A stretch of 12,187 nt of DNA from a virus (IMGVR_UViG_2713896785_000025), one strand, 5' to 3'. Positions 1 to 12,187 are shown, numbered from the stretch's first letter. Program-made: numbers and translations. Notes: generated by a model from the sequence alone, not told the origin.

Positions 1-1461
1 ATGAAAAAATTACTGCGTCTTTTTTTCCCGCTCTCACTGCGGGTACGTTTTCTGTTGGCAACGGCTGCGGTAGTACTGGTGCTTTCGCTTGCCTACGGAA
101 TGGTCGCGCTGATCGGTTATAGCGTCAGTTTCGATAAAACTACGTTTCGGCTGTTACGTGGCGAGAGCAATCTGTTCTATACCCTTGCGAAGTGGGAAAA
201 CAATAAGTTGCATGTCGAGTTACCCGAAAATATCGACAAGCAAAGCCCTACCATGACGCTAATTTATGATGAGAACGGGCAGCTTTTATGGGCGCAACGT
301 GACGTGCCCTGGCTGATGAAGATGATCCAGCCTGACTGGCTGAAATCGAATGGTTTTCATGAAATTGAAGCGGATGTTAACGATACCAGCCTCTTGCTGA
401 GTGGAGATCATTCGATACAGCAACAGTTGCAGGAAGTGCGGGAAGATGATGACGACGCGGAGATGACCCACTCGGTGGCAGTAAACGTCTACCCGGCAAC
501 ATCGCGGATGCCAAAATTAACCATTGTGGTGGTGGATACCATTCCGGTGGAGCTAAAAAGTTCCTATATGGTCTGGAGCTGGTTTATCTATGTGCTCTCA
601 GCCAATCTGCTGTTAGTGATCCCGCTGCTGTGGGTCGCCGCCTGGTGGAGTTTACGCCCCATCGAAGCCCTGGCAAAAGAAGTCCGCGAACTGGAAGAAC
701 ATAACCGCGAATTGCTCAATCCAGCCACAACGCGAGAACTGACCAGTCTGGTACGAAACCTGAACCGATTGTTAAAAAGTGAACGCGAACGTTACGACAA
801 ATACCGTACGACGCTCACCGACCTGACCCATAGTCTGAAAACGCCACTGGCGGTGCTGCAAAGTACGCTGCGTTCTCTGCGTAGTGAAAAGATGAGCGTC
901 AGTGATGCTGAGCCGGTAATGCTGGAGCAAATCAGCCGCATTTCACAGCAAATTGGCTACTACCTGCATCGTGCCAGTATGCGCGGCGGGACATTGCTCA
1001 GCCGCGAGCTGCATCCGGTCGCCCCACTGCTGGACAATCTCACCTCAGCGCTGAACAAAGTGTATCAACGCAAAGGGGTCAATATCTCTCTCGATATTTC
1101 GCCAGAGATCAGCTTTGTCGGTGAGCAGAACGATTTTGTCGAGGTGATGGGCAACGTGCTGGATAATGCCTGTAAATATTGCCTCGAGTTTGTCGAAATT
1201 TCTGCAAGGCAAACCGACGAGCATCTCTATATTGTGGTCGAGGATGATGGCCCCGGTATTCCATTAAGCAAGCGAGAGGTCATTTTCGACCGTGGTCAAC
1301 GGGTTGATACTTTACGCCCTGGGCAAGGTGTAGGGCTGGCGGTAGCCCGCGAAATCACCGAGCAATATGAGGGTAAAATCGTCGCCGGAGAGAGCATGCT
1401 GGGCGGTGCGCGGATGGAGGTGATTTTTGGTCGCCAGCATTCTGCGCCGAAAGATGAATAA
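1..1461 (+). CDS. phoQ: Sensor histidine kinase PhoQ (complete, 486 aa)
   Basis: Full-length ORF; sequence matches E. coli PhoQ as recalled (N-terminal TM segment, periplasmic acidic patch EDDDDAE, H-box [11 protein letters not shown], ATPase motifs DDGPGIP and GQGVGL). Stop TAA at 1459-1461. Confidence 0.96.
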
Positions 1462-2062: not shown

Positions 2063-2344
2063 TTACCGCCGCAGCCGTTCCGGCTTCTTCCAGTGGTACG
2101 TTATTTTTTCTTTCTCCCGATACAGTTCAACGCGGCGATTGTAGGCCAGCATTTCAAGAACGCGGTTCCGTATGTTGCGCATATCAACGCCATTAAGTTC
2201 TATACCATCACGGCGCATCACTTCCGCTACAACACGCACATAATTTTCAGCGGTCACGCTGTCCGGCTGTGTGGCCTGTTCGTCATGCTGCTGGCTGATT
2301 CCGGCGACGCGGCGGATTAATCCCAGTAGTTCGGCTTCTGTCAT
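2063..2344 (-). CDS. Hypothetical protein (93 aa), last gene of island, just beyond cos
   Basis: ORF with ATG at 2342-2344 (rc) preceded by G-rich SD (GGGGG, 4 nt spacer). No recognisable motif. Confidence 0.55.
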   Translation of the reverse strand: MTEAELLGLIRRVAGISQQHDEQATQPDSVTAENYVRVVAEVMRRDGIELNGVDMRNIRNRVLEMLAYNRRVELYREKEKITYHWKKPERLRR

Positions 2345-2376
2345 TGTGCCCCCATCGCTCTGATAGTCTGGTGTCG

Positions 2377-2572
2377 TCGGGTCCTTCCTGGAATTATGGT
2401 CCGTTACGGGGCGGCGACCTCGCGGTTTTTATCTGTTTATGAGAATTTTCCGGCAAAAGTCAGATCCGATCTTCTTCTCTGTAACAGACTGTTTAACAAC
2501 GAAAATATTAAAAAAAGAAAGGATCTGACACGAGGCATTTTAGCCAGAAAATGCCATTATCAGATCCTTTCT
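2377..2572 (+). other. Lambda-type cos site (cos1): cosQ-like flank, cosN GGGCGGCGACCT at 2409-2420, cosB-like R elements at 2460-2479, 2516-2528 (inverted), 2560-2572
   Basis: 12-nt overhang sequence identical to lambda cosN as recalled; flanks GTTACG / CGCGG..TTTATGA.AATTTTCCGG resemble the lambda left end; three repeats of TCAGATCC(G/T)(A/T)TCT in R3/R2(inverted)/R1 layout with hairpin 2534-2555 between R2 and R1. Confidence 0.8.
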
Positions 2573-2599
2573 CATTTTTGTTCAATAATTGCGCGTCTG

Positions 2600-3142
2600 T
2601 TACTCGCCTTTCTTCTGTAGCAACTTTTCCGGTACGTTTCCGGTTGTTTCTTTCAAGTAATCAGCCAGTATCTGTGGGAGGTTGTCGGCAACTCTGGCAC
2701 TGGCATTACAGGCTTTAACCACTTCCCTTTTAAGCCTGTCCAGCATGGCGGGGGGAATCTGTGGGAAGCTCCTTTGCATAGTAAGCGGGAGGATGTCCAT
2801 GATTGATGAAATCTGACTCGCCAGCTTTGAAAGCGCGTACAGGCAAAACTCAGTATCAATCACGTCACCGCGATCGCGATCGTTTTTAAGTTCCTGCGCC
2901 TCTGCCTGTGCTGTCAGTAATCTGATCCTGACTCGTAAAAGTTCATCATCGTCAATCTCGCCTTTGTCGTTTATAAGCTGGCTAATTGCATTGTTAACCC
3001 TATTTTCTATCACGCTGGCAACATCATAAAACGCCTCACGGCCTTTACGCTCAACGGGAGTTACTCCCCACTTGTCGAACGCTGTCGCACTTACACGGCA
3101 GCTTTTCGCCATGTTTTTTTTGTTCATCAGATGAGATTTCAT
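2600..3142 (-). CDS. Terminase small subunit, lambda Nu1-like (180 aa)
   Basis: Blocks shared with lambda Nu1 as recalled: NKK near N-terminus, LT(A/R)AQA(E/D)AQELKN.RD, (E/A)FC..(A/V)LS, ILPL(T/S)(M/V)QR.FP, LKR(E/D)(V/I)(V/I)KA. SD-like GGTG before ATG 3140-3142. Confidence 0.85.
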   Translation of the reverse strand: MKSHLMNKKNMAKSCRVSATAFDKWGVTPVERKGREAFYDVASVIENRVNNAISQLINDKGEIDDDELLRVRIRLLTAQAEAQELKNDRDRGDVIDTEFCLYALSKLASQISSIMDILPLTMQRSFPQIPPAMLDRLKREVVKACNASARVADNLPQILADYLKETTGNVPEKLLQKKGE

Positions 3143-3250
3143 TAATACACCAACTTAATTACTGCTTCAGGTTGGTGTATTGCTTGCATCTTTCCCTTTT
3201 CATTCATAAAGATAGATCAAACAACAAAACCACCACCACCCCCCTGAAAA

Positions 3251-3319
3251 GGCTCATAAATAGCGAAAATCCGCGAGGTCTCCGCCCCGTAACAGGTCCA
3301 TATGCCGGAAAGGACCCGC
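3251..3319 (-). other. Second lambda-type cos (cos2) in minus orientation: cosQ-like flank, cosN-like GGGCGGAGACCT (rc of 3276-3287, one mismatch), proximal cosB-like sequence, about 135 bp upstream of terS start
   Basis: Minus strand reads GCGGGTCCTTTCCGGCATATGGACCTGTTACG GGGCGGAGACCT CGCGGATTTTCGCTATTTATGA, closely matching the lambda right-end/left-end junction as recalled. Confidence 0.7.
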
Positions 3320-3341
3320 AAAAAAGCCGGATTTCTCCGGC
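3320..3341 (-). terminator. Intrinsic terminator (copy 1 of a thrice-repeated motif)
   Basis: Minus-strand RNA: hairpin GCCGGAGAAAUCCGGC followed by U6; 7 nt downstream of stop of gene 3348-3761. Confidence 0.6.
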
Positions 3342-3347
3342 CTTGTC

Positions 3348-3761
3348 TCAGATGGTTTTCAGTATGCGATCGATGTCGCCGTCATCGCCCGGGTTTCTGC
3401 CATCGTATGCCATGCCAGCTGATACGGCTTGTGGGCTGTGCATGTCCATAAAGTTTTCAAAGGCTGCGGTAAGCTCTGGTGCAACCTTCGGGCGTTCCTG
3501 CTCTATGGTCATGTTCAGGATGTTTTTAGCCGTATCAACATCAATACAAGGCACGTTTGCCATTGCACGTAACAGCGGCTGATAGTCGTCAGATTCATGA
3601 AGCGCCATAATCGCATCAGCGCGCGGCTTGTCCTTCTCTTCCAGGCTGTTAAGTTGATATACGGCCTCGTAGGTTGATAAACCTCTGTCAGCCATTGCCC
3701 GCGCTTCGGCTTTAAATTTACTCGCCAGCGGTAGCGTCATGATACTTTCATTCGTTGCCAT
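3348..3761 (-). CDS. Hypothetical protein (137 aa), between decoration gene and terS
   Basis: ORF with SD-like AGGGGGA upstream of ATG; 12-nt gap after the upstream gene stop; no recognisable motif. Confidence 0.65.
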   Translation of the reverse strand: MATNESIMTLPLASKFKAEARAMADRGLSTYEAVYQLNSLEEKDKPRADAIMALHESDDYQPLLRAMANVPCIDVDTAKNILNMTIEQERPKVAPELTAAFENFMDMHSPQAVSAGMAYDGRNPGDDGDIDRILKTI

Positions 3762-3773
3762 CGTTCCCCCTGC

Positions 3774-4109
3774 TTATCGCGCCAGCGGCTGAACGGATAC
3801 GCCAGAACCCGCAAAGGCGGCGCATTTTTTCGCGTCGGTGTCGGCGCTCTCAGGCCAGTTAACGGCGGCAATATTGAATATCCCCGTCTTGTAGCACTGT
3901 GCTGATTTCTGCGTCGACGTGTCCACGGGGTACGAGGTCAGATAAACAGCCTTGCCAGATTCCTGACCATCCCACGGCTTAAACTCGCCATTTTCCGCCA
4001 GCATCAGCGGGGTAAATTCCTGAATAACGCCAGCATCAGCAGCAAAATGTACCAGCGTCGTGGATACCTGCTGACTACCTGCAAATAACTCAATGTATGG
4101 AGTGTCCAT
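3774..4109 (-). CDS. Head decoration protein, lambda gpD-like (111 aa)
   Basis: Motifs shared with lambda D as recalled: TPLML, WDG, YK(T/S)G(I/T)F, WPE, KK..AFAG; same length class; SD GGGGGGA in 12-nt spacer after MCP stop. Confidence 0.85.
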   Translation of the reverse strand: MDTPYIELFAGSQQVSTTLVHFAADAGVIQEFTPLMLAENGEFKPWDGQESGKAVYLTSYPVDTSTQKSAQCYKTGIFNIAAVNWPESADTDAKKCAAFAGSGVSVQPLAR

Positions 4110-4121
4110 AGAATCCCCCCG

Positions 4122-5177
4122 TTAACCAATTTTGACGGTAACAAATTTGCGAATATCTGCCGGTACCGGCTGCGGTGCGCTGTGCGTCTGCACGTACTCA
4201 ATCGCCGGATCGCCGTCCTCAATCCAGTTTTTCGGGTAAAACATGTTTTGCGTTGCGCCCGTTCTGACCGCTTCCTGATCCATAATCGCACCATAGGCCA
4301 CCAGCCCTTTATTGTTGGTGTTACCCAGGACCAGCAAATCAGGCTCAAGGAAATATTTTTCGGTGCCGTCGCTGTCAGTGTATTTGCCGGAATAGACGAC
4401 AAGGGCAATATCGCCCAGATAGCCTTTAAAGCTCACCACTTCACCCAGGTTTTTACAGGCCAGTTCTGCGGCGGATTCTGAACCACGGGAAAGGTCGTAC
4501 AGTTCGCGGAATTTTTTAAAGCTGCGTAACGTGCGCCATACTTCAGCGCCCATAATCATGACGTTTGCGGGGCAATTGCCCTGATCAGCATAAAGCTCGA
4601 TGTCATAGATTGGATCGTGTGTTTCTTTATCCAGCTCAGACCATTTTTTACCGTCAGCCTGTTCTATGATATTGCTTTCCGGGATCTTCCAGTCGATTTC
4701 ATAGCGTTCTATGCCTTCGCCCTCAATGAGGTTTTTTCCGGTCGTTACCGCATTCACCGCCAGCCATTCCACGCGTGCCTTAATGGCGTTTATCTGGCGG
4801 CGCATGTTGCCAGTAATCAGGCGCATACGGCGATAGGTAGGATCGTTAAGCTGTGCCGGATCTTCTCCAGCCATGCGCATGATGGTTTTTGTTGGATCGA
4901 TTTCGTGTTTGGGTTTCATGTAGCCTGGTTTAATCGTGCTGGTTTCGTACCCTTTATCGCGCTGGACCTGACTACCCACCATAGGCGAACAGAACGCTGA
5001 CATCGTAACCTCTTCAATGTCCAGGGTGTCCAGCATGATGTTCTGGGTGTTGAAGGTCGCCACGTTCGGGAAAAACAGCGTGGTAAACAGCGGACTGAAT
5101 TTAAATTCTGCAATATCCCCGCGATTCAGGTACGCGAAAAGCTGGTTAGTGTTAAGTGCCGTTGCTTTGCCTGCCAT
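4122..5177 (-). CDS. Major capsid protein, lambda gpE-like (351 aa)
   Basis: Motifs shared with lambda E as recalled: (K/E)FKF.PLF..LFF, PGY(V/M)KPKHE, EDP..L.DP.YRR.R, YSG.Y, YPKNW...GDPA, SAP. Strong SD GGAGGTGA; start overlaps upstream stop (TAATG). Confidence 0.9.
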   Translation of the reverse strand: MAGKATALNTNQLFAYLNRGDIAEFKFSPLFTTLFFPNVATFNTQNIMLDTLDIEEVTMSAFCSPMVGSQVQRDKGYETSTIKPGYMKPKHEIDPTKTIMRMAGEDPAQLNDPTYRRMRLITGNMRRQINAIKARVEWLAVNAVTTGKNLIEGEGIERYEIDWKIPESNIIEQADGKKWSELDKETHDPIYDIELYADQGNCPANVMIMGAEVWRTLRSFKKFRELYDLSRGSESAAELACKNLGEVVSFKGYLGDIALVVYSGKYTDSDGTEKYFLEPDLLVLGNTNNKGLVAYGAIMDQEAVRTGATQNMFYPKNWIEDGDPAIEYVQTHSAPQPVPADIRKFVTVKIG

Positions 5178-5383
5178 TATTCACCTCCATGCGTCTGATT
5201 CATGCCCAGCGCCGCGCGTAAATAGGCGCGGACCTGCCAGCCTGTTGACGGCTCAACCATCGCCAGCGGATCAAGTCCTGCCGCAATGCCTGCTTTTACG
5301 TTCTGCTGGTGGCGTTCCTTGAGCGCCTTCACGATGTCGGGGCTTATGTACACCGAAACACCGCCTTTTTTCTCTTCAGCCAT
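5177..5383 (-). CDS. Hypothetical protein (68 aa), first gene of capsid operon
   Basis: ORF with SD AGGA 7-9 nt upstream of ATG; stop overlaps MCP start codon. Confidence 0.6.
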   Translation of the reverse strand: MAEEKKGGVSVYISPDIVKALKERHQQNVKAGIAAGLDPLAMVEPSTGWQVRAYLRAALGMNQTHGGE

Positions 5384-5439
5384 AGTAAGAAATTCCTCTT
5401 CGACTTAAAAAATCATAACTGGATGTTTATCCAGTCCTG

Positions 5440-5467
5440 ATTATAATCAGAATTGCATTTTATGCAA
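5440..5467 (-). promoter_or_regulatory. Candidate sigma70 promoter for capsid operon (-10 TATAAT, -35 TTGCAT, 16-nt spacer) overlapping palindrome TTGCATTTTATGCAA
   Basis: Minus-strand hexamers read from rc of 5440-5445 and 5462-5467; inverted repeats at 5453-5467 and 5418-5435 (ACTGGAT-GTTT-ATCCAGT). Confidence 0.4.
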
Positions 5468-5548
5468 TGATATTGAGTTATGTTGCAAATTATGAAATGA
5501 TTATCCCGATCACGAACGCCAGTGCATCCAAAAACCTCATATGCAAAA

Positions 5549-5586
5549 GCCCGATAAGAACCCTCTGACCTTATCGGGCTTTTTTT
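5549..5586 (+). terminator. Hairpin plus T7 (10-bp stem GCCCGATAAG/CTTATCGGGC); strong on + strand, weaker on minus
   Basis: Perfect 10-bp inverted repeat with 11-nt loop followed by TTTTTTT on + strand; A-run on other side gives U4 on minus strand. Confidence 0.5.
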
Positions 5587-5592
5587 GGGCGC

Positions 5593-5614
5593 AAAAAAGC
5601 CGGATTGCTCCGGC
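5593..5614 (-). terminator. Intrinsic terminator (copy 2 of repeated motif)
   Basis: Minus-strand RNA: hairpin GCCGGAGCAAUCCGGC followed by U6; about 20 nt downstream of gene 5635-5859. Confidence 0.6.
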
Positions 5615-5634
5615 TATGTGTGCTGTGTGCTGGC

Positions 5635-5859
5635 TCAGTCTCTGATCTCTTTCAGAAATTCTATCAATGCATCTATCTGTTCAGGATTTACCGCCAGCAT
5701 TTCACCGGATAGAGCACATCTCACAAAACCATGCTGATCCTTTTCAATCAGTGCGCCCGTCTCCAGGAATGCGCGGTAATCATTGATGCTCATCGTCTCC
5801 ATGTTGTCAGCATGGTATTTATCACGCTGTTTTAATATCTCATCAAATTTCATCGGCAT
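5635..5859 (-). CDS. Hypothetical protein (74 aa), terminator-insulated cassette
   Basis: ORF with SD AGAGGA 9 nt upstream of ATG; no recognisable motif. Confidence 0.6.
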   Translation of the reverse strand: MPMKFDEILKQRDKYHADNMETMSINDYRAFLETGALIEKDQHGFVRCALSGEMLAVNPEQIDALIEFLKEIRD

Positions 5860-5955
5860 TGTTTTTTTCCTCTGTTGTGTCTGTTTGTTTCAGATAGTAA
5901 CTATGCCTGACCGTGACGAAAACCCGGTAATGCGCCATACCGTTTCAACTGGTGC

Positions 5956-5978
5956 AAAAAAAGCCGGATTTCTCCGGC
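5956..5978 (-). terminator. Intrinsic terminator (copy 3 of repeated motif)
   Basis: Minus-strand RNA: hairpin GCCGGAGAAAUCCGGC followed by U7; 8 nt downstream of stop of gene 5986-6258. Confidence 0.6.
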
Positions 5979-5985
5979 TGTTTGA

Positions 5986-6258
5986 TTAGCTGTCCTGGTA
6001 ATTGCGCCATATTTCATCACCAGCACCATCTATACCCATTTCGGCATAAGTGCGATCGACTGCCTTTTTCAGGTCTCCGAAATTATCCGGCGGCTCCGGT
6101 GCCCTCTGTGCCTTCCTTGAACATTCCAGCCGTCGCATCGTGATGTGATGCCGTTCCTTGTCTGTCTCCACCAGCTGCATGACTTCACCCCATCGCGCCG
6201 CCGCCCTCCGGTAAAAGCCTTTCGCCTCCAGTTCCTCCGCTATGCGGTCATGTACCAT
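5986..6258 (-). CDS. PerC-family transcriptional regulator-like protein (about 90 aa; start refined from the 130-aa track ORF)
   Basis: N-terminal motif D.IAEELEAKGFYRRAAARW typical of the PerC/Pch family as recalled; internal ATG at 6256-6258 has SD GAGGGGG 5 nt upstream, and the SSB stop codon lies within that SD. Confidence 0.6.
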   Translation of the reverse strand: MVHDRIAEELEAKGFYRRAAARWGEVMQLVETDKERHHITMRRLECSRKAQRAPEPPDNFGDLKKAVDRTYAEMGIDGAGDEIWRNYQDS

Positions 6259-6268
6259 CGTCACCCCC

Positions 6269-6679
6269 TCAGAACGAAATATCATCACCGTAAGGGTCAT
6301 CGCCTCCCGCTGGTGGCTGATTACCCTGTGTGCCTGTGGTTTTGCGTCTGTTCCCGCCTGGACGTGCCGCGCGGGCACTGATTACGCTGTCTGCGATAAC
6401 CTGCCAGCCCTGCCGCGTTTCTCCGTTCTGTCCGGTCCACTGGCTTACCTGCATCGTGCCGGATACGCTGGCAACATCGCCTTTTTGATGTTTAGCCAGG
6501 AAGTCGGCCTGTTTGCCAAATGCGATGACCGATAACCATAACGTCGCCTGTCCGTCCTGTGCCTGGCTGCATGGCAAAGATACCGCCATACGCGCCAGCG
6601 TCATCGGTGTGCCCTTGCTGGTCTGTTTTACCTGCGGGTCGTCCACCAGCCGCCCGTAAGCGGCTATCTGTGCCGTCAT
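6269..6679 (-). CDS. Single-stranded DNA-binding protein homolog (136 aa)
   Basis: OB-fold blocks align with E. coli SSB as recalled (GRL..DP, FGK.A, W..Q.G..R); Gly/Gln-rich linker; acidic C-terminal tail GDDISF (host tail is DDDIPF). SD GGAGAGGTGG; ATGA overlap with upstream gene. Confidence 0.8.
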   Translation of the reverse strand: MTAQIAAYGRLVDDPQVKQTSKGTPMTLARMAVSLPCSQAQDGQATLWLSVIAFGKQADFLAKHQKGDVASVSGTMQVSQWTGQNGETRQGWQVIADSVISARAARPGGNRRKTTGTQGNQPPAGGDDPYGDDISF

Positions 6680-6927
6680 AATTCCACCTCTCCGGTTTTA
6701 ACGTTGATGGTTGTTACCTGTTCCGCTTCGGCAATCTCCCGTTCTGTCAGCGTGGCAAAGTTTGCCGCCGCCGTGGTCATGAATGCGCTTATCAGGTCGG
6801 GATGTTCCTTCGCGTATCCTTCCCGCGTGTGGCGGTCTATCGTTCTGATTGCCACCTTTAAGGTGTGCTCAGTCATGTCTAACGCTTTATATTTTGGCTC
6901 TGTTCTGTCTCTGCGTTTTTGGGTCAT
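6676..6927 (-). CDS. Hypothetical protein (83 aa from ATG; track ORF uses GTG at 6957)
   Basis: ATG at 6925-6927 (rc) with GAGAGG 9 nt upstream; GTG start would place iterons inside the coding sequence. Confidence 0.5.
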   Translation of the reverse strand: MTQKRRDRTEPKYKALDMTEHTLKVAIRTIDRHTREGYAKEHPDLISAFMTTAAANFATLTEREIAEAEQVTTINVKTGEVEL

Positions 6928-6939
6928 TTCTCGCAACCT

Positions 6940-7130
6940 CTCACTTTTTCGCCTCACTTTTTCAAGCGTCTCACTTCGTCGCAGTTGGGATTTTCGGTTT
7001 TTCTATGTGTGTGTTTCATAAGTATTTTTTTACCCCTCACTTTTGAGGATGTATACAGGTCGAAAAGTGAGGGAGAGCGGGCTAATTTTGGCCCTCTTTC
7101 TATCCCCCTCGCTTTTGCTCCTCACTTTTA
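6940..7130. repeat. Iteron array / candidate origin of replication (CTCACTTTT repeats, one inverted) with AT-rich tract
   Basis: CTCAC(T)4 at 6940-6949, 6953-6962, 7036-7045, 7121-7130; variants at 6970-6978 and 7108-7117; inverted copy AAAAGTGAG at 7063-7071; AT-rich stretch 7001-7034; immediately downstream of replicase gene. Confidence 0.6.
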
Positions 7131-8528
7131 TAGCGGCGCTACATCATCCCCATCGATACGAATAACCCCATCTTTTTCCAGCTTGTACAGCCAGCGCCGG
7201 AAGTTTTTCATTTCATACCCCAGCTTTTTCATGTCATCACGTAACAGCGGGATCGTGCACTTGTCGCCGTTCTGTGTGCGTGAACGGATGCACCCCCATA
7301 GCGCGGTATGGTTTTCCGTCTTGTTCCCTGCCTCCTCGATGCGCTCCAGTTCAACAGGAGGGCGCGGATCATCCACCACCACCAGCGACGTGATTAATTC
7401 ACCGTCAGCGTCGGTAAAAAGCTCCACCACGCGTAAGTCATATGCGGCTTCTTTGAGTTCCTCCGCGTCCTTCATTTTGGTGCATGAGATAACCAGCGCT
7501 TCGCTTCCTGCGTCCTCCCTGCGTATCCGGTATTCAGCATCCAGCGAAGCACGAAATGCACTGGAACCGCGCGCGCCTTTCGTCTCATCCTTGCCGGAAT
7601 GGTGAACCACCAGCACCGTGGCCCCTGTGCGTCGTTTCAGTTCGTCACAACCACGGATAAACGCCCCCATATCACGGGAATCATTTTCATCATTCCCACC
7701 AAAGCAACGCGCCAGCGTATCCAGAATAATCATGCGTACAGGTTTACCCGTTTCCCGCTCCACCTGACGGGCAGCGATAACCATTTCATCAACATCAAGC
7801 GGGGCAGCCGGAAAGATGGGGCGGTTTACCAGATACAGATTTTTCACCTGCTCATCGTGCACAACCTCCCAGGCTTTTACACGACGCGGAACACCTATAC
7901 CGCCTTCACCAACCACATAGAGAACCGCACCATGTGCAACCCTGCGGCCTCCCCACTGGCGACCAGTGGCAACATGGCACGCCCACGATCCGGCAAGGAA
8001 TGATTTATAGGACCCGCTAGCCCCGTATATGCTGCATAGCGATACCGCCGGAATAATCCCCTTAACCACGTAATCCAGTTGCGTGTCGTATCCGGTAGAT
8101 CCAACGCTCATCGGTAGCGTGGTTTTTCGCTGGTGGTTTTTTTCTTCCGCCGGCTCTTTCCCGCGCACCCGTTCCAGGTATTCGCGCCAGTTCTCCCGCA
8201 TATGGCTGTGCATCCCTTCGGGGTAATAATTCGCATCAGTTACACCCGCCGCCGCCAGCTTGTGCGCAATGGCATTAATATTTGATGGCCTGATGTGGCC
8301 TGCCTTGTACAGCCGGACACAATAGCGCCCCTCGTCGATGATTCTCAGGTCTGCCAGTTCATCCAGTTGATCATCAGCCAGCACAACGGGAGGCACATTA
8401 TCGCCAGCCAGTCGCCCGTCCTGTTCCTGCCACTGTTTCGCATGTGCCCAGGCATCACTACCCGCAAAAATAATGACTTCGGTCATCTTGTCGTAAGGCT
8501 GTTTTTTTAAGTTCGGTGCGCTTTTCAT
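7128..8528 (-). CDS. Replication protein: RecA-like AAA_25 ATPase/helicase-type replicase with N-terminal possible Toprim/primase-like domain (466 aa)
   Basis: Walker A GASGSYKSFLA...HVATG, Walker B-like MIILDTLARCF, HHSGKDETKG motif; SD AGGGG; start overlaps upstream stop (ATGA). Confidence 0.85.
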   Translation of the reverse strand: MKSAPNLKKQPYDKMTEVIIFAGSDAWAHAKQWQEQDGRLAGDNVPPVVLADDQLDELADLRIIDEGRYCVRLYKAGHIRPSNINAIAHKLAAAGVTDANYYPEGMHSHMRENWREYLERVRGKEPAEEKNHQRKTTLPMSVGSTGYDTQLDYVVKGIIPAVSLCSIYGASGSYKSFLAGSWACHVATGRQWGGRRVAHGAVLYVVGEGGIGVPRRVKAWEVVHDEQVKNLYLVNRPIFPAAPLDVDEMVIAARQVERETGKPVRMIILDTLARCFGGNDENDSRDMGAFIRGCDELKRRTGATVLVVHHSGKDETKGARGSSAFRASLDAEYRIRREDAGSEALVISCTKMKDAEELKEAAYDLRVVELFTDADGELITSLVVVDDPRPPVELERIEEAGNKTENHTALWGCIRSRTQNGDKCTIPLLRDDMKKLGYEMKNFRRWLYKLEKDGVIRIDGDDVAPL

Positions 8529-8871
8529 TTCTTGCCCCTGAATCCGTTAATCATGGTTTTCAGCTTCTGGATGTTTGCCCGTGCCCTGGCGTTGCTGGTG
8601 GGCACGTTATGCGGCGCGGTCTGTACCAGAGAAAAATCACGCCGGAACTGATAAACAGGCATCACGCAATCATATTCGTAACCTTCACGNNNNNNNNNNN
8701 NNNNNNNNNNNNNNNNNNNNNNNNNNNNNNNNNNNNNNNNNNTGATTTTTGTTTGTCGCGTTCATTGTCGCCAAGTGTTTCAAGCCATATGCGCAATATT
8801 TCCAGCATGTTTTCACTGTGAGAAAGTGCAAGAAATGCGCGGTCTATTGTTTGGTGGTAAATATCACGCAT
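8525..8871 (-). CDS. Hypothetical protein interrupted by assembly gap (N-terminal 43 codons 8743-8871; C-terminal 54 codons 8528-8689 plus stop 8525-8527)
   Basis: Both fragments are open right up to the gap edges; ATG 8869-8871 with SD GAGGA; C-terminal frame ends with TGA overlapping replicase ATG. The stated gap length (53) is not a multiple of 3, so continuity is unproven. Confidence 0.45.
8690..8742. other. Assembly gap (53 N)
   Basis: Run of n characters in the sequence. Confidence 1.
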
Positions 8872-9328
8872 GGCTTACATCCTCAGGAAATTTTCTTCTA
8901 TAACGCGCCTCTGCCACATATTCCGCATAATCGGCGGCGATATTCAGTACATCAAGCCCCGTTGATTTATATTCTCTCGTGGAAAGTAAGAAAAAAGCCG
9001 CTCTAATAAGTTCTGGCATTGACGAAAGCGCATCAGCCGCATCATCAGGAACGCCGGAAAATTCCTGTTTCAGGGAATTAAAACGATCATCACGCATAAC
9101 CCCCCCATTTTCACAATCAGCAATCAGGATGGCTTTGGCCTCATTCAGCGCCATATCCGCACTAAGTTGCATAACCGCCAGCGAATGAGGAACGAAAGCC
9201 CCGGCATATTCTGTTTCACTGGTGGCGTGCTTATGCGCCATGTCTGCGATAACAGAAATATCAATCAGCGCGTGCATTAGCGTTATGATGGCTTCGGCGG
9301 CTGCGTCCGGACGGATGTTATTGCACAT
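8864..9328 (-). CDS. Hypothetical protein (154 aa), first clearly supported gene of leftward early operon
   Basis: Near-consensus SD AGGAGGTG 5-6 nt upstream of ATG 9326-9328; stop overlaps next start by 8 nt. Confidence 0.65.
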   Translation of the reverse strand: MCNNIRPDAAAEAIITLMHALIDISVIADMAHKHATSETEYAGAFVPHSLAVMQLSADMALNEAKAILIADCENGGVMRDDRFNSLKQEFSGVPDDAADALSSMPELIRAAFFLLSTREYKSTGLDVLNIAADYAEYVAEARYRRKFPEDVSHA

Positions 9329-9524
9329 GGCACACCTCCTGACGAATACGGGCAGCGAATACCATCACGCAGCCAGCCGGAGATTGCTGGCGTGCTTCCT
9401 GTTCGCTGGTGGCCTCAATGGTAATCACGCGCGGTTGTGCCGTGCTCAGGGCGATAAAACGCCAGATGTATTTATTCAGGTTGTGCGAGTCCCGCCCTTG
9501 CGGGTGTGTGGTATGATTTCTCAT
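9318..9524 (-). CDS. Possible small protein (68 aa); C-terminal part of the 342-aa track ORF
   Basis: ATG at 9522-9524 (rc) with GAGGT 4 nt upstream; otherwise unsupported, and it contains the SD of the next gene. Confidence 0.25.
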   Translation of the reverse strand: MRNHTTHPQGRDSHNLNKYIWRFIALSTAQPRVITIEATSEQEARQQSPAGCVMVFAARIRQEVCHVQ

Positions 9525-9620
9525 AGCTACCTCGATACTTTCGCTATCGTTGGTGGTTAGAAGCCCGGTTAGTGTTAGCGCACTGCCGGGTTTCGTCGTT
9601 TCTGCACCTTGCGCCAACAA

Positions 9621-9674
9621 GGTGTTGAACACCAATTTAAACCCAGGTGTTAAACACGTCAAGTGTTGAACACT
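9621..9674. promoter_or_regulatory. Three palindromic operator-like sites GTGTT-N-AACAC with candidate rightward promoter
   Basis: GGTGTTGAACACC 9621-9633, GGTGTTAAACACG 9646-9658, AGTGTTGAACACT 9662-9674 (centres 25 and 16 bp apart). -35 TTGAAC 9666-9671 inside site 3, 17-nt spacer, -10 CATACT 9689-9694, upstream of ORF 9724. Confidence 0.6.
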
Positions 9675-9723
9675 TATTTTTTTTCCTGCATACTGCATTT
9701 GTTTTTTATGAGGGGTACACCAC

Positions 9724-9903
9724 ATGGCGACAAAAGCAGTAAACGCAAAATCACAAACCGTTGCGGCAAGGGTTCCGCATGAAGTTATGAACAATGTTGA
9801 GGCGGTAAAAATGCCTGGCGAAAGTACGGGGCAATTTGTTACTGCAGCATTAAAACGAGAAGTTGAATATCGCCAGCGGCGCAAGGCCAAAGAACCAGAG
9901 TAA
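9724..9903 (+). CDS. Small DNA-binding protein, ribbon-helix-helix-like (59 aa)
   Basis: Not in ORF track (below size cut-off). ATG 9724 with SD GAGGGG 8 nt upstream; pattern beta-strand TVAARVP, helix, loop GES, helix resembles Arc/CopG-type RHH; basic C-terminus. Confidence 0.55.
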   Translation: MATKAVNAKSQTVAARVPHEVMNNVEAVKMPGESTGQFVTAALKREVEYRQRRKAKEPE

Positions 9904-9960
9904 TCACCATCAGCGCCGTGGTGTAAGGTATTACGGCGCATTGCTATGCAGGACAACACA

Positions 9961-10134
9961 ATGACCGATAAAGAATTGACCAAAACATTATCACCGGCAC
10001 GGAAAAGACGGCGCAGAAAGATAGAGCATGAATCAGAAAGATTCGCGCCATGTGCTTTTGCCCTTGAGCAATTCCTTAAAGAGTACAGGGAAAAGCGCTC
10101 ATTGCAGGTATGGCAACGAACTGAACCAGACTGA
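9961..10134 (+). CDS. Small basic hypothetical protein (57 aa; track ORF starts at 9946)
   Basis: ATG 9961 has SD AGGA with 7-nt spacer; Arg/Lys-rich segment RKRRRRK; followed by terminator. Confidence 0.45.
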   Translation: MTDKELTKTLSPARKRRRRKIEHESERFAPCAFALEQFLKEYREKRSLQVWQRTEPD

Positions 10135-10228
10135 TAGCATTGCCCACCAGCCTGATAGCGACTATCATTGCCGTTCTTATGTTTGGGATCACACACACAA
10201 ACGGCGCAGCGGGTTATCTGTTCAGAAA

Positions 10229-10257
10229 GGCGGCTCCATTTCGGGGCCGCTTTTTTT
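10229..10257 (+). terminator. Intrinsic terminator for rightward transcript
   Basis: Stem GCGGCTCC/GGGGCCGC (one G-U pair), loop ATTTC, then T7 on + strand. Confidence 0.65.
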
Positions 10258-10403
10258 ATGTCTGAAAAACCCCAATTTTGTTGTTTTTCAGTTTCACCAG
10301 GGCGAACGAATCCCCGCCCACGTTCTGGCGTATATTCAATCTTCATGGTTATAGCTCTGTGTTCAGATGATTGATGTGTGGCGGCTGCGTGCCGCCAGCG
10401 TGA

Positions 10404-10592
10404 TTAATGAACTGCCTTGCAGCTATCCTTCCAGGCCAGAACCTCGGATAAAGACCAGCCAACGGAACGACCGCCAAGTTTACGACGTGATGGGAATTGT
10501 CCGGCCTTTTCCAGGCGGTAGCGACACGTACGGCTAAGGCCGGTTAGTTTTTCGCATTCTTTTTCACGTATAAACCGATCAGTGCTTAACAC
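10404..10592 (-). CDS. AlpA-family transcriptional regulator (about 62 aa from GTG; track gives 89 aa from TTG at 10673)
   Basis: HTH block LTGLSRTCRYRLEKAGQFP..RKLGGRSVGWSLSEV.AW typical of AlpA/Phage_AlpA as recalled; GTG at 10590-10592 (rc) preceded by SD AGGGGGG with 5-nt spacer; no internal ATG. Confidence 0.8.
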   Translation of the reverse strand: MLSTDRFIREKECEKLTGLSRTCRYRLEKAGQFPSRRKLGGRSVGWSLSEVLAWKDSCKAVH

Positions 10593-10865
10593 TATTGCCC
10601 CCCTTTCGTTTCTTAAAGAGTCATCAGGTGTCTTATTGTGTCGTATTGTTCCCGCTAGAGTGATGAATGGCAAATATTGAGGATGTATGATTTACAGAAA
10701 ATGAAACAGTAAGAATAAAATCTTTTAAATTCATGTTAATACAAAGGCATAAAATATTGTTTCATGCCTTTTTTCTCACGCGTTAAAGCGTTATTCGCTA
10801 ATGTATAAAAAAACAGTCACACAAATAAAATCAGTCACTTATAAACCTGTGTACTTTTTCGCCTC

Positions 10866-10910
10866 TTGTTCGTGGTTGTTCCACGTTGTTTCACATTGTT
10901 CGCCGTTGTA
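10866..10910. repeat. Five phased direct repeats TTGTT at exact 10-bp intervals
   Basis: TTGTT at 10866, 10876, 10886, 10896 and TTGTA at 10906; adjacent 16-bp perfect palindrome CAGTATGCGCATACTG at 10925-10940. Confidence 0.55.
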
Positions 10911-10957
10911 TCTGTGTGCTTATCCAGTATGCGCATACTGAAAAAACACGAAAAAAA

Positions 10958-12187
10958 TTATTTTCTTCTGGCTGCTGGTAGTGCGGTTACGTTTTCATGT
11001 GTTCCCGCCAGTATCCCTAACCGCTCCATCCACATATCCAGCGCATTGCGTTTAGCATCCAGATAACGGGAATGATTATAAACTCGCTGCATTCCTGGCA
11101 TCTGGTGGCCTGTAAGCTGCTCCACGACGTGAGGATCCACGCCTAAATCGCTCAGCATCGTTGTAAAGGTGCGCCGGATGTCATGTAGTGACCAGTGAGG
11201 GTGATTTAGCCTCCTGTGCGCTAATCTGCCGTACTGCGACACGCTTGTTTCCTGTTTCACTTCCCCCAGCAATAAGCCCGTGTGCCTGTTCTGCTCCACC
11301 AGCTGCGTGACGAACGGCAGTATTGCTTCCGGTATGGGCCGGAATATTGCCACCTTCGTTTTGCTGTGTTCTTTCGGCACGGTCCAGAGCATTTCGGTAA
11401 AATCCCACTCGCTGATCTCCGATAACCTCAGTTCTACCGTCCGGCATCCGAACACAATCAGGAGGCGGATTAACGCGATGTAGTAGGGGGAGAATATTTT
11501 TTTGTCCAGTGCCTGCAATAATTCGCCCAGTTCTTTGGTGCTTAAGACACGCTCGCTTATATCCGGTTTTTTCCCAACGTCCGCCACACTCATATCATCA
11601 AGAACGTTGCTGATTGCATAGCGCCGCCTCCGGCAGAACTTAAGCGCCTGTTTGCACGTCTGTAGCAAGAATCCGGCAGTAACAGGCGTTCGCTTTGCCA
11701 CCTGGTCAAAACAGGCCAGCCAGTGCCGTAGCTCGCATTTATCCAGCGGCATAGCACCAATGTGCTGTATTACGTGATTATTAAGGCGCTTTTTCAGGGC
11801 GGCATAATCCACGCGGTTTTCCTTTGCGTACGACTCAAGCCAGTAGGTGAGCGCATCGCCAACCGTTACCGGCTTTAACGCTTCCTGTACGGTGTAATTA
11901 AGCTCATGACGTGGATTTTTCCCCTCTGCCAGCCATGCGCGACACTGGGCGGCTTTTTCCCTGGCTGATTTCAGGCTCAGATCAGGATAATTTCCCAGCT
12001 TAATGCGTTCCGGTGGTGCCCCCCTTCCCGTTCCGGCCCTGTAAGTGAAATACCAGGTTAAAAGGCCACTGGTTGAATGCCTGACGCTCAGGTTTCCACC
12101 GTCATTAAGAAAGGCTGTTTTTTGGGCGGGTGTGCCGTTGATTTTCCTCAGCTGTGTATCGCTCAGTTTGTTAAGTGCTCTGCTCAT
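10958..12187 (-). CDS. Tyrosine recombinase / integrase, P4-like family (409 aa; start codon at the window edge, so the 5' end could be truncated)
   Basis: N-terminal arm-binding-type region; catalytic-domain motifs GCRTVELRL, HDIRRTFTT, LTGHQ...VYNHSRY (R, H-x-x-R, Y). Confidence 0.92.
   Translation of the reverse strand: MSRALNKLSDTQLRKINGTPAQKTAFLNDGGNLSVRHSTSGLLTWYFTYRAGTGRGAPPERIKLGNYPDLSLKSAREKAAQCRAWLAEGKNPRHELNYTVQEALKPVTVGDALTYWLESYAKENRVDYAALKKRLNNHVIQHIGAMPLDKCELRHWLACFDQVAKRTPVTAGFLLQTCKQALKFCRRRRYAISNVLDDMSVADVGKKPDISERVLSTKELGELLQALDKKIFSPYYIALIRLLIVFGCRTVELRLSEISEWDFTEMLWTVPKEHSKTKVAIFRPIPEAILPFVTQLVEQNRHTGLLLGEVKQETSVSQYGRLAHRRLNHPHWSLHDIRRTFTTMLSDLGVDPHVVEQLTGHQMPGMQRVYNHSRYLDAKRNALDMWMERLGILAGTHENVTALPAARRK

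Follow-up and report, generated by a model that had tools for sequence, protein, structure and literature searches.

A probable sister of the phage satellite EcCICFT073 with its own small terminase and an accessory capsid module between phoQ and roxA of Escherichia coli

The window analysed here, that is the whole stretch of 12,187 nucleotides from viral record IMGVR_UViG_2713896785_000025, contains a mobile island of Escherichia coli inserted next to phoQ. With a probability that we put at roughly 0.88 it is a classical Type A phage-inducible chromosomal island (PICI) of the Gram-negative kind, a sister of EcCICFT073, which follows the helper-dependent life cycle proposed below and carries an accessory capsid module. 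It adds one more copy to a type of satellite that is already well described, with a packaging cassette built around its own small terminase (TerS), and it is neither a capsid-forming PICI (cf-PICI) nor a decayed prophage. A sequence-only reading of the same DNA had described a phage satellite which possesses shell genes of lambda type together with a small terminase, while portal, protease, large terminase (TerL) and tail genes are absent, and this description held when the gene set was compared with databases. The same reading took such a gene set for unusual, which it is not: the element with its capsid, decoration and terS genes belongs to an already described and widespread satellite family.

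Boundaries, gene content and closest relatives of the island

The features that delimit the island and serve its mobility are listed by coordinates, strand, description and basis.

1-1461, plus strand: phoQ, which opens the window; the remainder is island, nearly all of it on the minus strand
1548-1568, no strand: att core, a 21-nt exact direct repeat ACTACACCATTAACTACACCG (repeat comparison with a complete genome)
6269-6679, minus strand: single-stranded DNA-binding protein, SSB (Pfam/PHROG)
6940-7129, no strand: putative replication origin with about six AAAAGTGAGG iterons in both orientations (sequence repeats)
7128-8528, minus strand: RepA-type helicase replicase (AAA_25; phrog_2850)
8690-8742, no strand: masked run of 53 N, which stands for 245 bp in the nearest complete genome
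10404-10673, minus strand: AlpA-family regulator/excisionase (PF05930, 1.5e-16)
10958-12187, minus strand: tyrosine integrase (Pfam/PHROG domains, RefSeq)

Aligned with the O26:H11-type chromosome of E. coli strain FWSEC0001, the window showed 5 mismatches in the 8,689 bases that precede the run of N and none across the 3,445 bases that follow it; the 245 bp hidden under this run cover a DUF4222 gene and an adjacent small open reading frame (ORF). In matching complete genomes the insertion site lies between phoQ and roxA (ycfD). The second copy of the att core is no longer part of the window, being located 22 bp past the start of the integrase gene, and the spacing of the two repeats gives an island size of 10,858 bp. 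The island thus begins at the att core and not at position 2063, as had been supposed from the sequence. At the opposite end roxA starts 249 bp past the integrase start and directly adjoins this gene, therefore no island gene is concealed beyond position 12187; inspection of this part of the complete genomes revealed no hidden portal, protease or TerL gene. Approximately 500 bp between the att core and the last island gene (1569-2062) contain no annotated gene, family match or Rfam match, and an Rfam search of the whole window returned nothing. At a coverage of at least 80% the whole island was found in 361 of 5,426 complete E. coli genomes.

SatelliteFinder defines the core of a PICI as integrase, regulator, primase-replicase, capsid morphogenesis and terS genes, while genes for tail, holin, portal and connectors are forbidden (PMC10085698). 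All five components (integrase, AlpA, primase-replicase, capsid morphogenesis and terS) are present here in canonical order, and Pfam/PHROG scans of 20 island ORFs revealed no tail, holin, portal or head-tail connector gene; no difference from a Type A PICI was found. Nor did these ORFs match portal, S49 protease, TerL, tail or lysis families, so that the absence of portal, protease, TerL and tail genes claimed from the sequence was borne out for an island directly flanked by roxA and phoQ. The scans also gave no match to the P4-like gene set (Sid, Psu, delta, epsilon and alpha-primase), the decoration protein being of gpD type and not Psu. Other hallmarks of PICIs are found as well: a tyrosine integrase at one end with direct repeats flanking a site-specific insertion, an AlpA gene that adjoins the integrase in the same orientation, an own replicase with the AAAAGTGAGG iterons of a putative origin downstream of its gene, a TerS flanked by two lambda-type cos sites, capsid-morphogenesis genes (Phage_cap_E, gpD-type and Nu3-like), and a size within about 10-15 kb. 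The integrase, AlpA, replicase and SSB genes expected from the sequence were all recovered by Pfam/PHROG scans, and the expected origin would correspond to the iterons at 6940-7129.

The closest described element is EcCICFT073 (Fillol-Salom et al. 2018 ISME J, 2019 Mol Cell), the prototype Gram-negative PICI, which occupies the same roxA/phoQ site. Both islands share one gene order, namely int, alpA, small ORFs, DUF4222, replicase, origin, SSB and perC, followed by a 68-aa ORF, the major capsid protein (MCP), the decoration protein (D), a 137-aa ORF, cos, a packaging gene, an inverted cos and a 93-aa ORF. The identity reaches 96% for MCP, 95% for D and 94% for the 137-aa ORF; in EcCICFT073 MCP, D and the packaging gene product consist of 351, 111 and 144 aa. 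The islands differ in the replicase (RepA/AAA_25 helicase in the window, D5-type primase in EcCICFT073), in their cosB regions and in the content of the packaging slot, which holds a full-length TerS of 180 aa in the window and RppA (c1503, 144 residues) in EcCICFT073. The presence of the same MCP-D-137aa module at the same att site of the prototype does not agree with the statement of the sequence-only reading that classical PICIs lack capsid genes. The capsid (c1499) and decoration (c1500) genes of EcCICFT073 were described and deleted in 2018 (PMC6092414), and its capsid homologue was mentioned in Dokland's 2019 review. Of 29 reference Gram-negative PICIs, 21 carry a major capsid gene, which is their commonest late gene (PMC10111431), and among the 375 five-component PICIs registered by SatelliteFinder 97% are from E. 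coli (PMC10085698; de Sousa et al. 2023 NAR). By these data the gene set is not unusual.

Other satellites were compared as well. The cf-PICI EcCIEDL933 also has its own MCP and TerS along with similar int, alpA and replication modules, but cf-PICIs additionally have genes for portal, protease, head-tail connectors, HNH and TerL and produce small capsids of their own, whereas this complete head set (portal, protease, adaptor/connector, TerL and HNH) was found neither in the island nor in its flanks. Helper-embedded PICIs (11capE type; Williams lab 2023) have the same layout of int, alpA, replicase, SSB, MCP, D and terS, and their TerS (L007 and L008 of our set of loci) is 77-84% identical to that of the window, while MCP is only 55% identical; these elements integrate in helper late genes (E or B), and an AlpA-like gene replaces their Nu3-like ORF. 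Judging by their description, the PICIs of two E. coli strains, IHE3034 and 18098 (Fillol-Salom 2018), also resemble the window island, since they encode their own TerS.

Packaging cassette and proposed life cycle

The cassette that follows the capsid genes comprises four features.

2063-2344, minus strand: 93-aa conserved ORF (phrog_1561), the last island gene, likewise last in EcCICFT073
2377-2450, plus strand: inverted cos downstream of terS, with the exact lambda cosN GGGCGGCGACCT at 2409-2420
2600-3142, minus strand: small terminase TerS, full-length Nu1-type, 180 aa (PF07471, 1.5e-22; phrog_57 positions 8-193 of 199)
3240-3315, minus strand: cos upstream of and co-oriented with terS, as in lambda, with cosN at 3276-3287 (GGGCGGAGACCT, one mismatch)

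The Nu1-like small terminase expected from the sequence proved to be a full-length protein by both profiles, and it aligns over residues 6-162 with the Nu1 homologue of a lambdoid prophage (34% identity). A search of PDB sequences with this TerS (phmmer) gave matches at chance level, neither Rpp nor the N-terminal domain of lambda Nu1 being recovered. Members of the Rpp-type subgroup (about 144-153 aa) resemble TerS only in the N-terminal winged helix-turn-helix, as does RppA, which matches phrog_57 only at positions 12-52, while in the window the slot is filled by a full-length TerS. BLASTP against RppA showed no similarity (E = 3.1), and for this reason an interpretation of the 180-aa protein as a long Rpp was rejected. 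A lambda-type cos had also been expected, and its exact cosN is indeed present; it is not a single site, however, since two inverted cos flank terS. In alignments a core of approximately 75 nt is common to both sites and the cos of a lambdoid prophage, beyond which the similarity is lost on the cosB side. For EcCICFT073 two functional cos sites with a phage-like cosN and a different cosB were reported (PMC6092414). Immediately upstream of the terS start codon there is also a perfect 10-nt inverted repeat ATACACCAAC ... GTTGGTGTAT (about 3146-3185, minus strand), which, to judge from its sequence and position, could be an operator or a TerS-binding site.

Homology to EcCICFT073 allows the following life cycle to be proposed. 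A lambdoid helper phage would switch on AlpA, the integrase would excise the island, and the RepA-type helicase would replicate it from the iteron origin. The island TerS may then bind the island-specific cosB beside the lambda-type cosN and recruit the large terminase of the helper (gpA), so that island concatemers would be cut at cos and take precedence over helper DNA in packaging. The helper would supply heads, portal, protease and tails, while the products of the capsid module would most likely join or supplement helper capsid assembly. EcCICFT073 uses RppA to retarget the helper TerS. Since TerS in the window is full-length, it is expected to bind its own cosB and to recruit the helper TerL directly, by analogy with the TerS of pac-type Staphylococcus aureus pathogenicity islands (SaPIs).

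Several circumstances weigh against this reading. Helper activation, excision, replication and packaging through cos are transferred from EcCICFT073, where they were shown experimentally, so that the experiments concern the sister island only. The assignment to Type A was made from the published list of SatelliteFinder components. In the 2018 tests, resident prophages failed to mobilise the TerS-encoding PICIs of IHE3034 and 18098 (PMC6092414), and for this reason no helper is known for E. coli PICIs of the TerS type. Finally, the role given to the capsid module is a guess.

Composition, distribution and maintenance of the capsid module

The capsid genes and the terminators that delimit transcription in this part of the island are as follows.

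3317-3346, minus strand: intrinsic terminator, GCCGGAGAAATCCGGC followed by a T run, which closes the capsid unit after the Nu3-like ORF
3348-3761, minus strand: 137-aa Nu3-like ORF (phrog_1999), homologous to the C-terminal part of lambdoid gpC
3774-4109, minus strand: decoration protein of lambda gpD type (PF02924, 1e-17)
4122-5177, minus strand: MCP of lambda gpE type with HK97 fold (Pfam Phage_cap_E, 2.2e-50; phrog_29, 1.3e-106)
5177-5383, minus strand: 68-aa ORF (PHROG family phrog_3255), presumably the equivalent of c1498
5598-5615, minus strand: intrinsic terminator, a near-identical copy of GCCGGAGAAATCCGGC with a T run, after a 74-aa ORF
5962-5979, minus strand: intrinsic terminator, another near-identical copy of GCCGGAGAAATCCGGC with a T run, after perC

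The 68-aa ORF, MCP, D and the Nu3-like ORF together form an accessory capsid module that is conserved, maintained by selection and delimited by terminators. The E-like MCP and the D-like decoration protein noticed in the sequence, with the accessions WP_000907455 and WP_000380886, were both confirmed by Pfam, and so was their order, MCP being ahead of D in the direction of transcription, which is the reverse of lambda. MCP shares 97% of 349 aligned residues with PDB entry 3BQW, deposited as "putative capsid protein of prophage", matches the lambda gpE chains in PDB at 2.8e-82 and is 45% identical to the MCP of a lambdoid prophage of CFT073. The stop codon of the 68-aa ORF overlaps the start codon of the MCP gene (ATGA), and this ORF is kept upstream of the MCP gene in the PICIs of CFT073 and Salmonella; by eye its N-terminal sequence looks ribbon-helix-helix-like. 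The contiguous leftward operon imagined by the sequence-only reading is broken by three copies of one intrinsic terminator. The capsid unit has one of these copies on either side, which points to its separate transcription, possibly in an antitermination-dependent manner.

The absence of a scaffold gene, also claimed from the sequence, was not upheld. In the head-maturation-protease family phrog_53 the match of the 137-aa ORF falls at the C-terminal end (positions 494-567 of 583, 6.7e-9), and with 36% identity over 83 residues (E = 6e-10) the ORF aligns with residues 416-493 of the 501-aa gpC homologue from a lambdoid CFT073 prophage; its 29%-identical counterpart in another PICI lineage independently matches the same part of phrog_53 (1.6e-8). 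The lambda scaffold Nu3 corresponds to the last ~132 residues encoded by the C reading frame, therefore the 137-aa ORF can be regarded as a homologue of Nu3 type, and the module, by this similarity, probably includes a scaffold-like gene. A full-length match of this ORF to the last 141 gpC codons with a common "M1" was discarded as partly an artefact, the first codon being an internal GTG rendered as M; only the C-terminal ~83 residues are significantly similar to gpC (E = 1e-10). A phmmer search of PDB sequences with this ORF gave only chance-level matches, and a literature search for a PICI with a Nu3 scaffold found no paper. Public records sometimes call the ORF "head-tail preconnector", which we take to be an old name for gp5/gp6 of phage 21, the equivalents of C and Nu3. 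The ORF is not universal: relatives from Salmonella and Serratia and the helper-embedded ones either have none or carry an AlpA-like gene instead.

The 68aa-MCP-D-137aa module was found in 592 of the 5,426 complete E. coli genomes. To see its surroundings more widely, eleven contexts of MCP homologues with identities of 51-96% were compared; besides the window and CFT073 these were nine loci of Salmonella, E. coli, Edwardsiella and Serratia. The layout int, replicase, MCP and D was common to all eleven and AlpA was detected in ten, while none of these contexts contained its own portal, protease or TerL. In three of the nine cases the locus lies within helper prophage genes or a P2-like tail region: related PICIs with the same MCP-D pair are inserted in the helper capsid gene E (L008, 2511-14073), in the helper portal gene (L011, 1-11681) and inside the tail-gene region of a P2-like prophage (L009). 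Among 50,697 phage records the best match to MCP was only 47% identical (Gifsy-1 and lambda-like phages) and the best match to TerS only 44% (N15), so these two genes are not recent captures from helpers. Judged by these comparisons, the capsid module belongs to a satellite-specific lineage. For pairs with an unsaturated rate of synonymous substitutions (dS) the ratio of nonsynonymous to synonymous rates (dN/dS) was 0.06-0.16 for MCP, 0.15-0.30 for D, 0.21 for the Nu3-like ORF and, in pairs with dS below 2, 0.14-0.21 for TerS; all four genes are under clear purifying selection.

The remaining genes of the island are listed below.

5635-5859, minus strand: 74-aa ORF (PHROG family phrog_1957)
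5986-6258, minus strand: PerC-family regulator (Pfam; RefSeq start used)
8864-9328, minus strand: 154-aa conserved ORF (phrog_2512; PHROG, RefSeq)

The PerC-family regulator is carried here by the PICI of a chromosome of enterohaemorrhagic E. coli type (O26:H11). PerC-like genes of PICIs are reported to activate LEE (locus of enterocyte effacement) expression, to repress it or to leave it unaffected, depending on the element. A mechanical ORF of 342 aa at 9318-10346 (minus strand) was rejected as a gene. Only its C-terminal ~90 residues match a family (phrog_6196); RefSeq annotates an Icd-like protein, a YlcI/YnfO protein (9724-9903, plus strand) and a pseudogene fragment in this interval.

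What the capsid module may do

Because its genes belong to lambda families, one could take the whole element for the rest of a once-complete lambdoid phage, with capsid and terminase genes as leftovers. This is extremely improbable and was rejected as effectively refuted. The scans of island ORFs revealed no remnants of repressor, lysis, tail, portal or TerL genes, the ORFs are intact and under purifying selection (dN/dS 0.06-0.3), and the closest phage MCP is only 47% identical. Moreover, the same architecture is kept at many att sites and in several genera, and the sister element EcCICFT073 is experimentally a mobilisable satellite. For a PICI with a maintained capsid module two functions can be considered, and both have to be confronted with the genetics of EcCICFT073. 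In the 2018 report, deletion of c1499 or c1500 affected neither transfer nor interference with lambda (PMC6092414). According to published data the module is dispensable in the laboratory when the native helper, lambda or phage 80 mediates transfer, and exchange of c1498-c1501 for cas9 in a synthetic island still left it transferable. An activity like that of SaPIbov5 Ccm, i.e. co-assembly of the MCP homologue with helper subunits, which would redirect capsid size or poison helper assembly, looks unlikely against this background. It has real precedents: Ccm is a satellite-encoded homologue of the helper HK97-fold MCP that belongs, like the MCP of the window, to a cos-packaged island and was shown to redirect assembly to small capsids; PmCI172, also with an MCP homologue, makes small capsids; and the SatelliteFinder paper attributes to the PICI capsid gene a presumed modification of the hijacked capsid (PMC10085698). 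Yet loss of c1499 or c1500 gave no relief of interference with lambda, interference was mapped to RppA (c1503), and packaged EcCICFT073 DNA was phage-sized; unlike Ccm, the MCP of EcCICFT073 had no effect of this kind with lambda.

Somewhat better placed, though still doubtful, is the possibility that the island is a partial capsid former, its MCP, D and Nu3-like scaffold building a carrier shell of another size or of mosaic composition on the portal and protease of the helper. Scaffold-like, shell and cement proteins make up a coherent shell-building set, which is under strong purifying selection, is kept across several Enterobacterales genera in satellite contexts only and, as no MCP among the 50,697 phage records exceeds 47% identity, was not captured recently. 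It conflicts with the efficient transfer, by lambda, phage 80 and the native helper, of islands without c1499, c1500 or c1498-c1501, and with the presence of several related PICIs that retain MCP and D but have no Nu3-like ORF. The weight of the transfer data depends, however, on the islands used. According to the accessible description, the marked "wild-type" islands were c1501::tetA or c1499::cat and a third construct was c1498-c1501::cas9, i.e. the module was disrupted in every marked EcCICFT073 named there. Consecutive numbering around c1499, c1500 ... c1503 suggests that c1501 is the 137-aa ORF and c1498 the 68-aa ORF. If c1501 is the Nu3-like gene, then in that description no intact module was set against a deleted one, and the phage-sized DNA would also have come from a disrupted module. 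Tentatively, therefore, the four-gene unit may be a working shell kit which with the right helper gives satellite-specific capsids, possibly smaller or mosaic, and the "no phenotype" results may have missed this effect because in every marked EcCICFT073 named in that description the unit was already disrupted and the helpers were limited to lambda, phage 80 and one native phage. A search of recent structural literature on capsid genes of classical PICIs turned up only cf-PICI and SaPI papers.

As a discovery the assigned Type A PICI matters little, being a member of a described family with a crystal structure of the MCP already in PDB. It touches, however, the question why many enterobacterial PICIs keep a capsid/decoration pair that is seemingly dispensable in the laboratory. 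A partial capsid former, if that is what the island is, would stand between classical PICIs and cf-PICIs, and if the shell-kit explanation is true, classical PICIs of E. coli would themselves be partial capsid formers. The Nu3-like neighbour of MCP and D, the satellite-specific lineage under selection and the fact that, in the accessible description, knockouts were made in already disrupted islands sharpen this question and make it testable.

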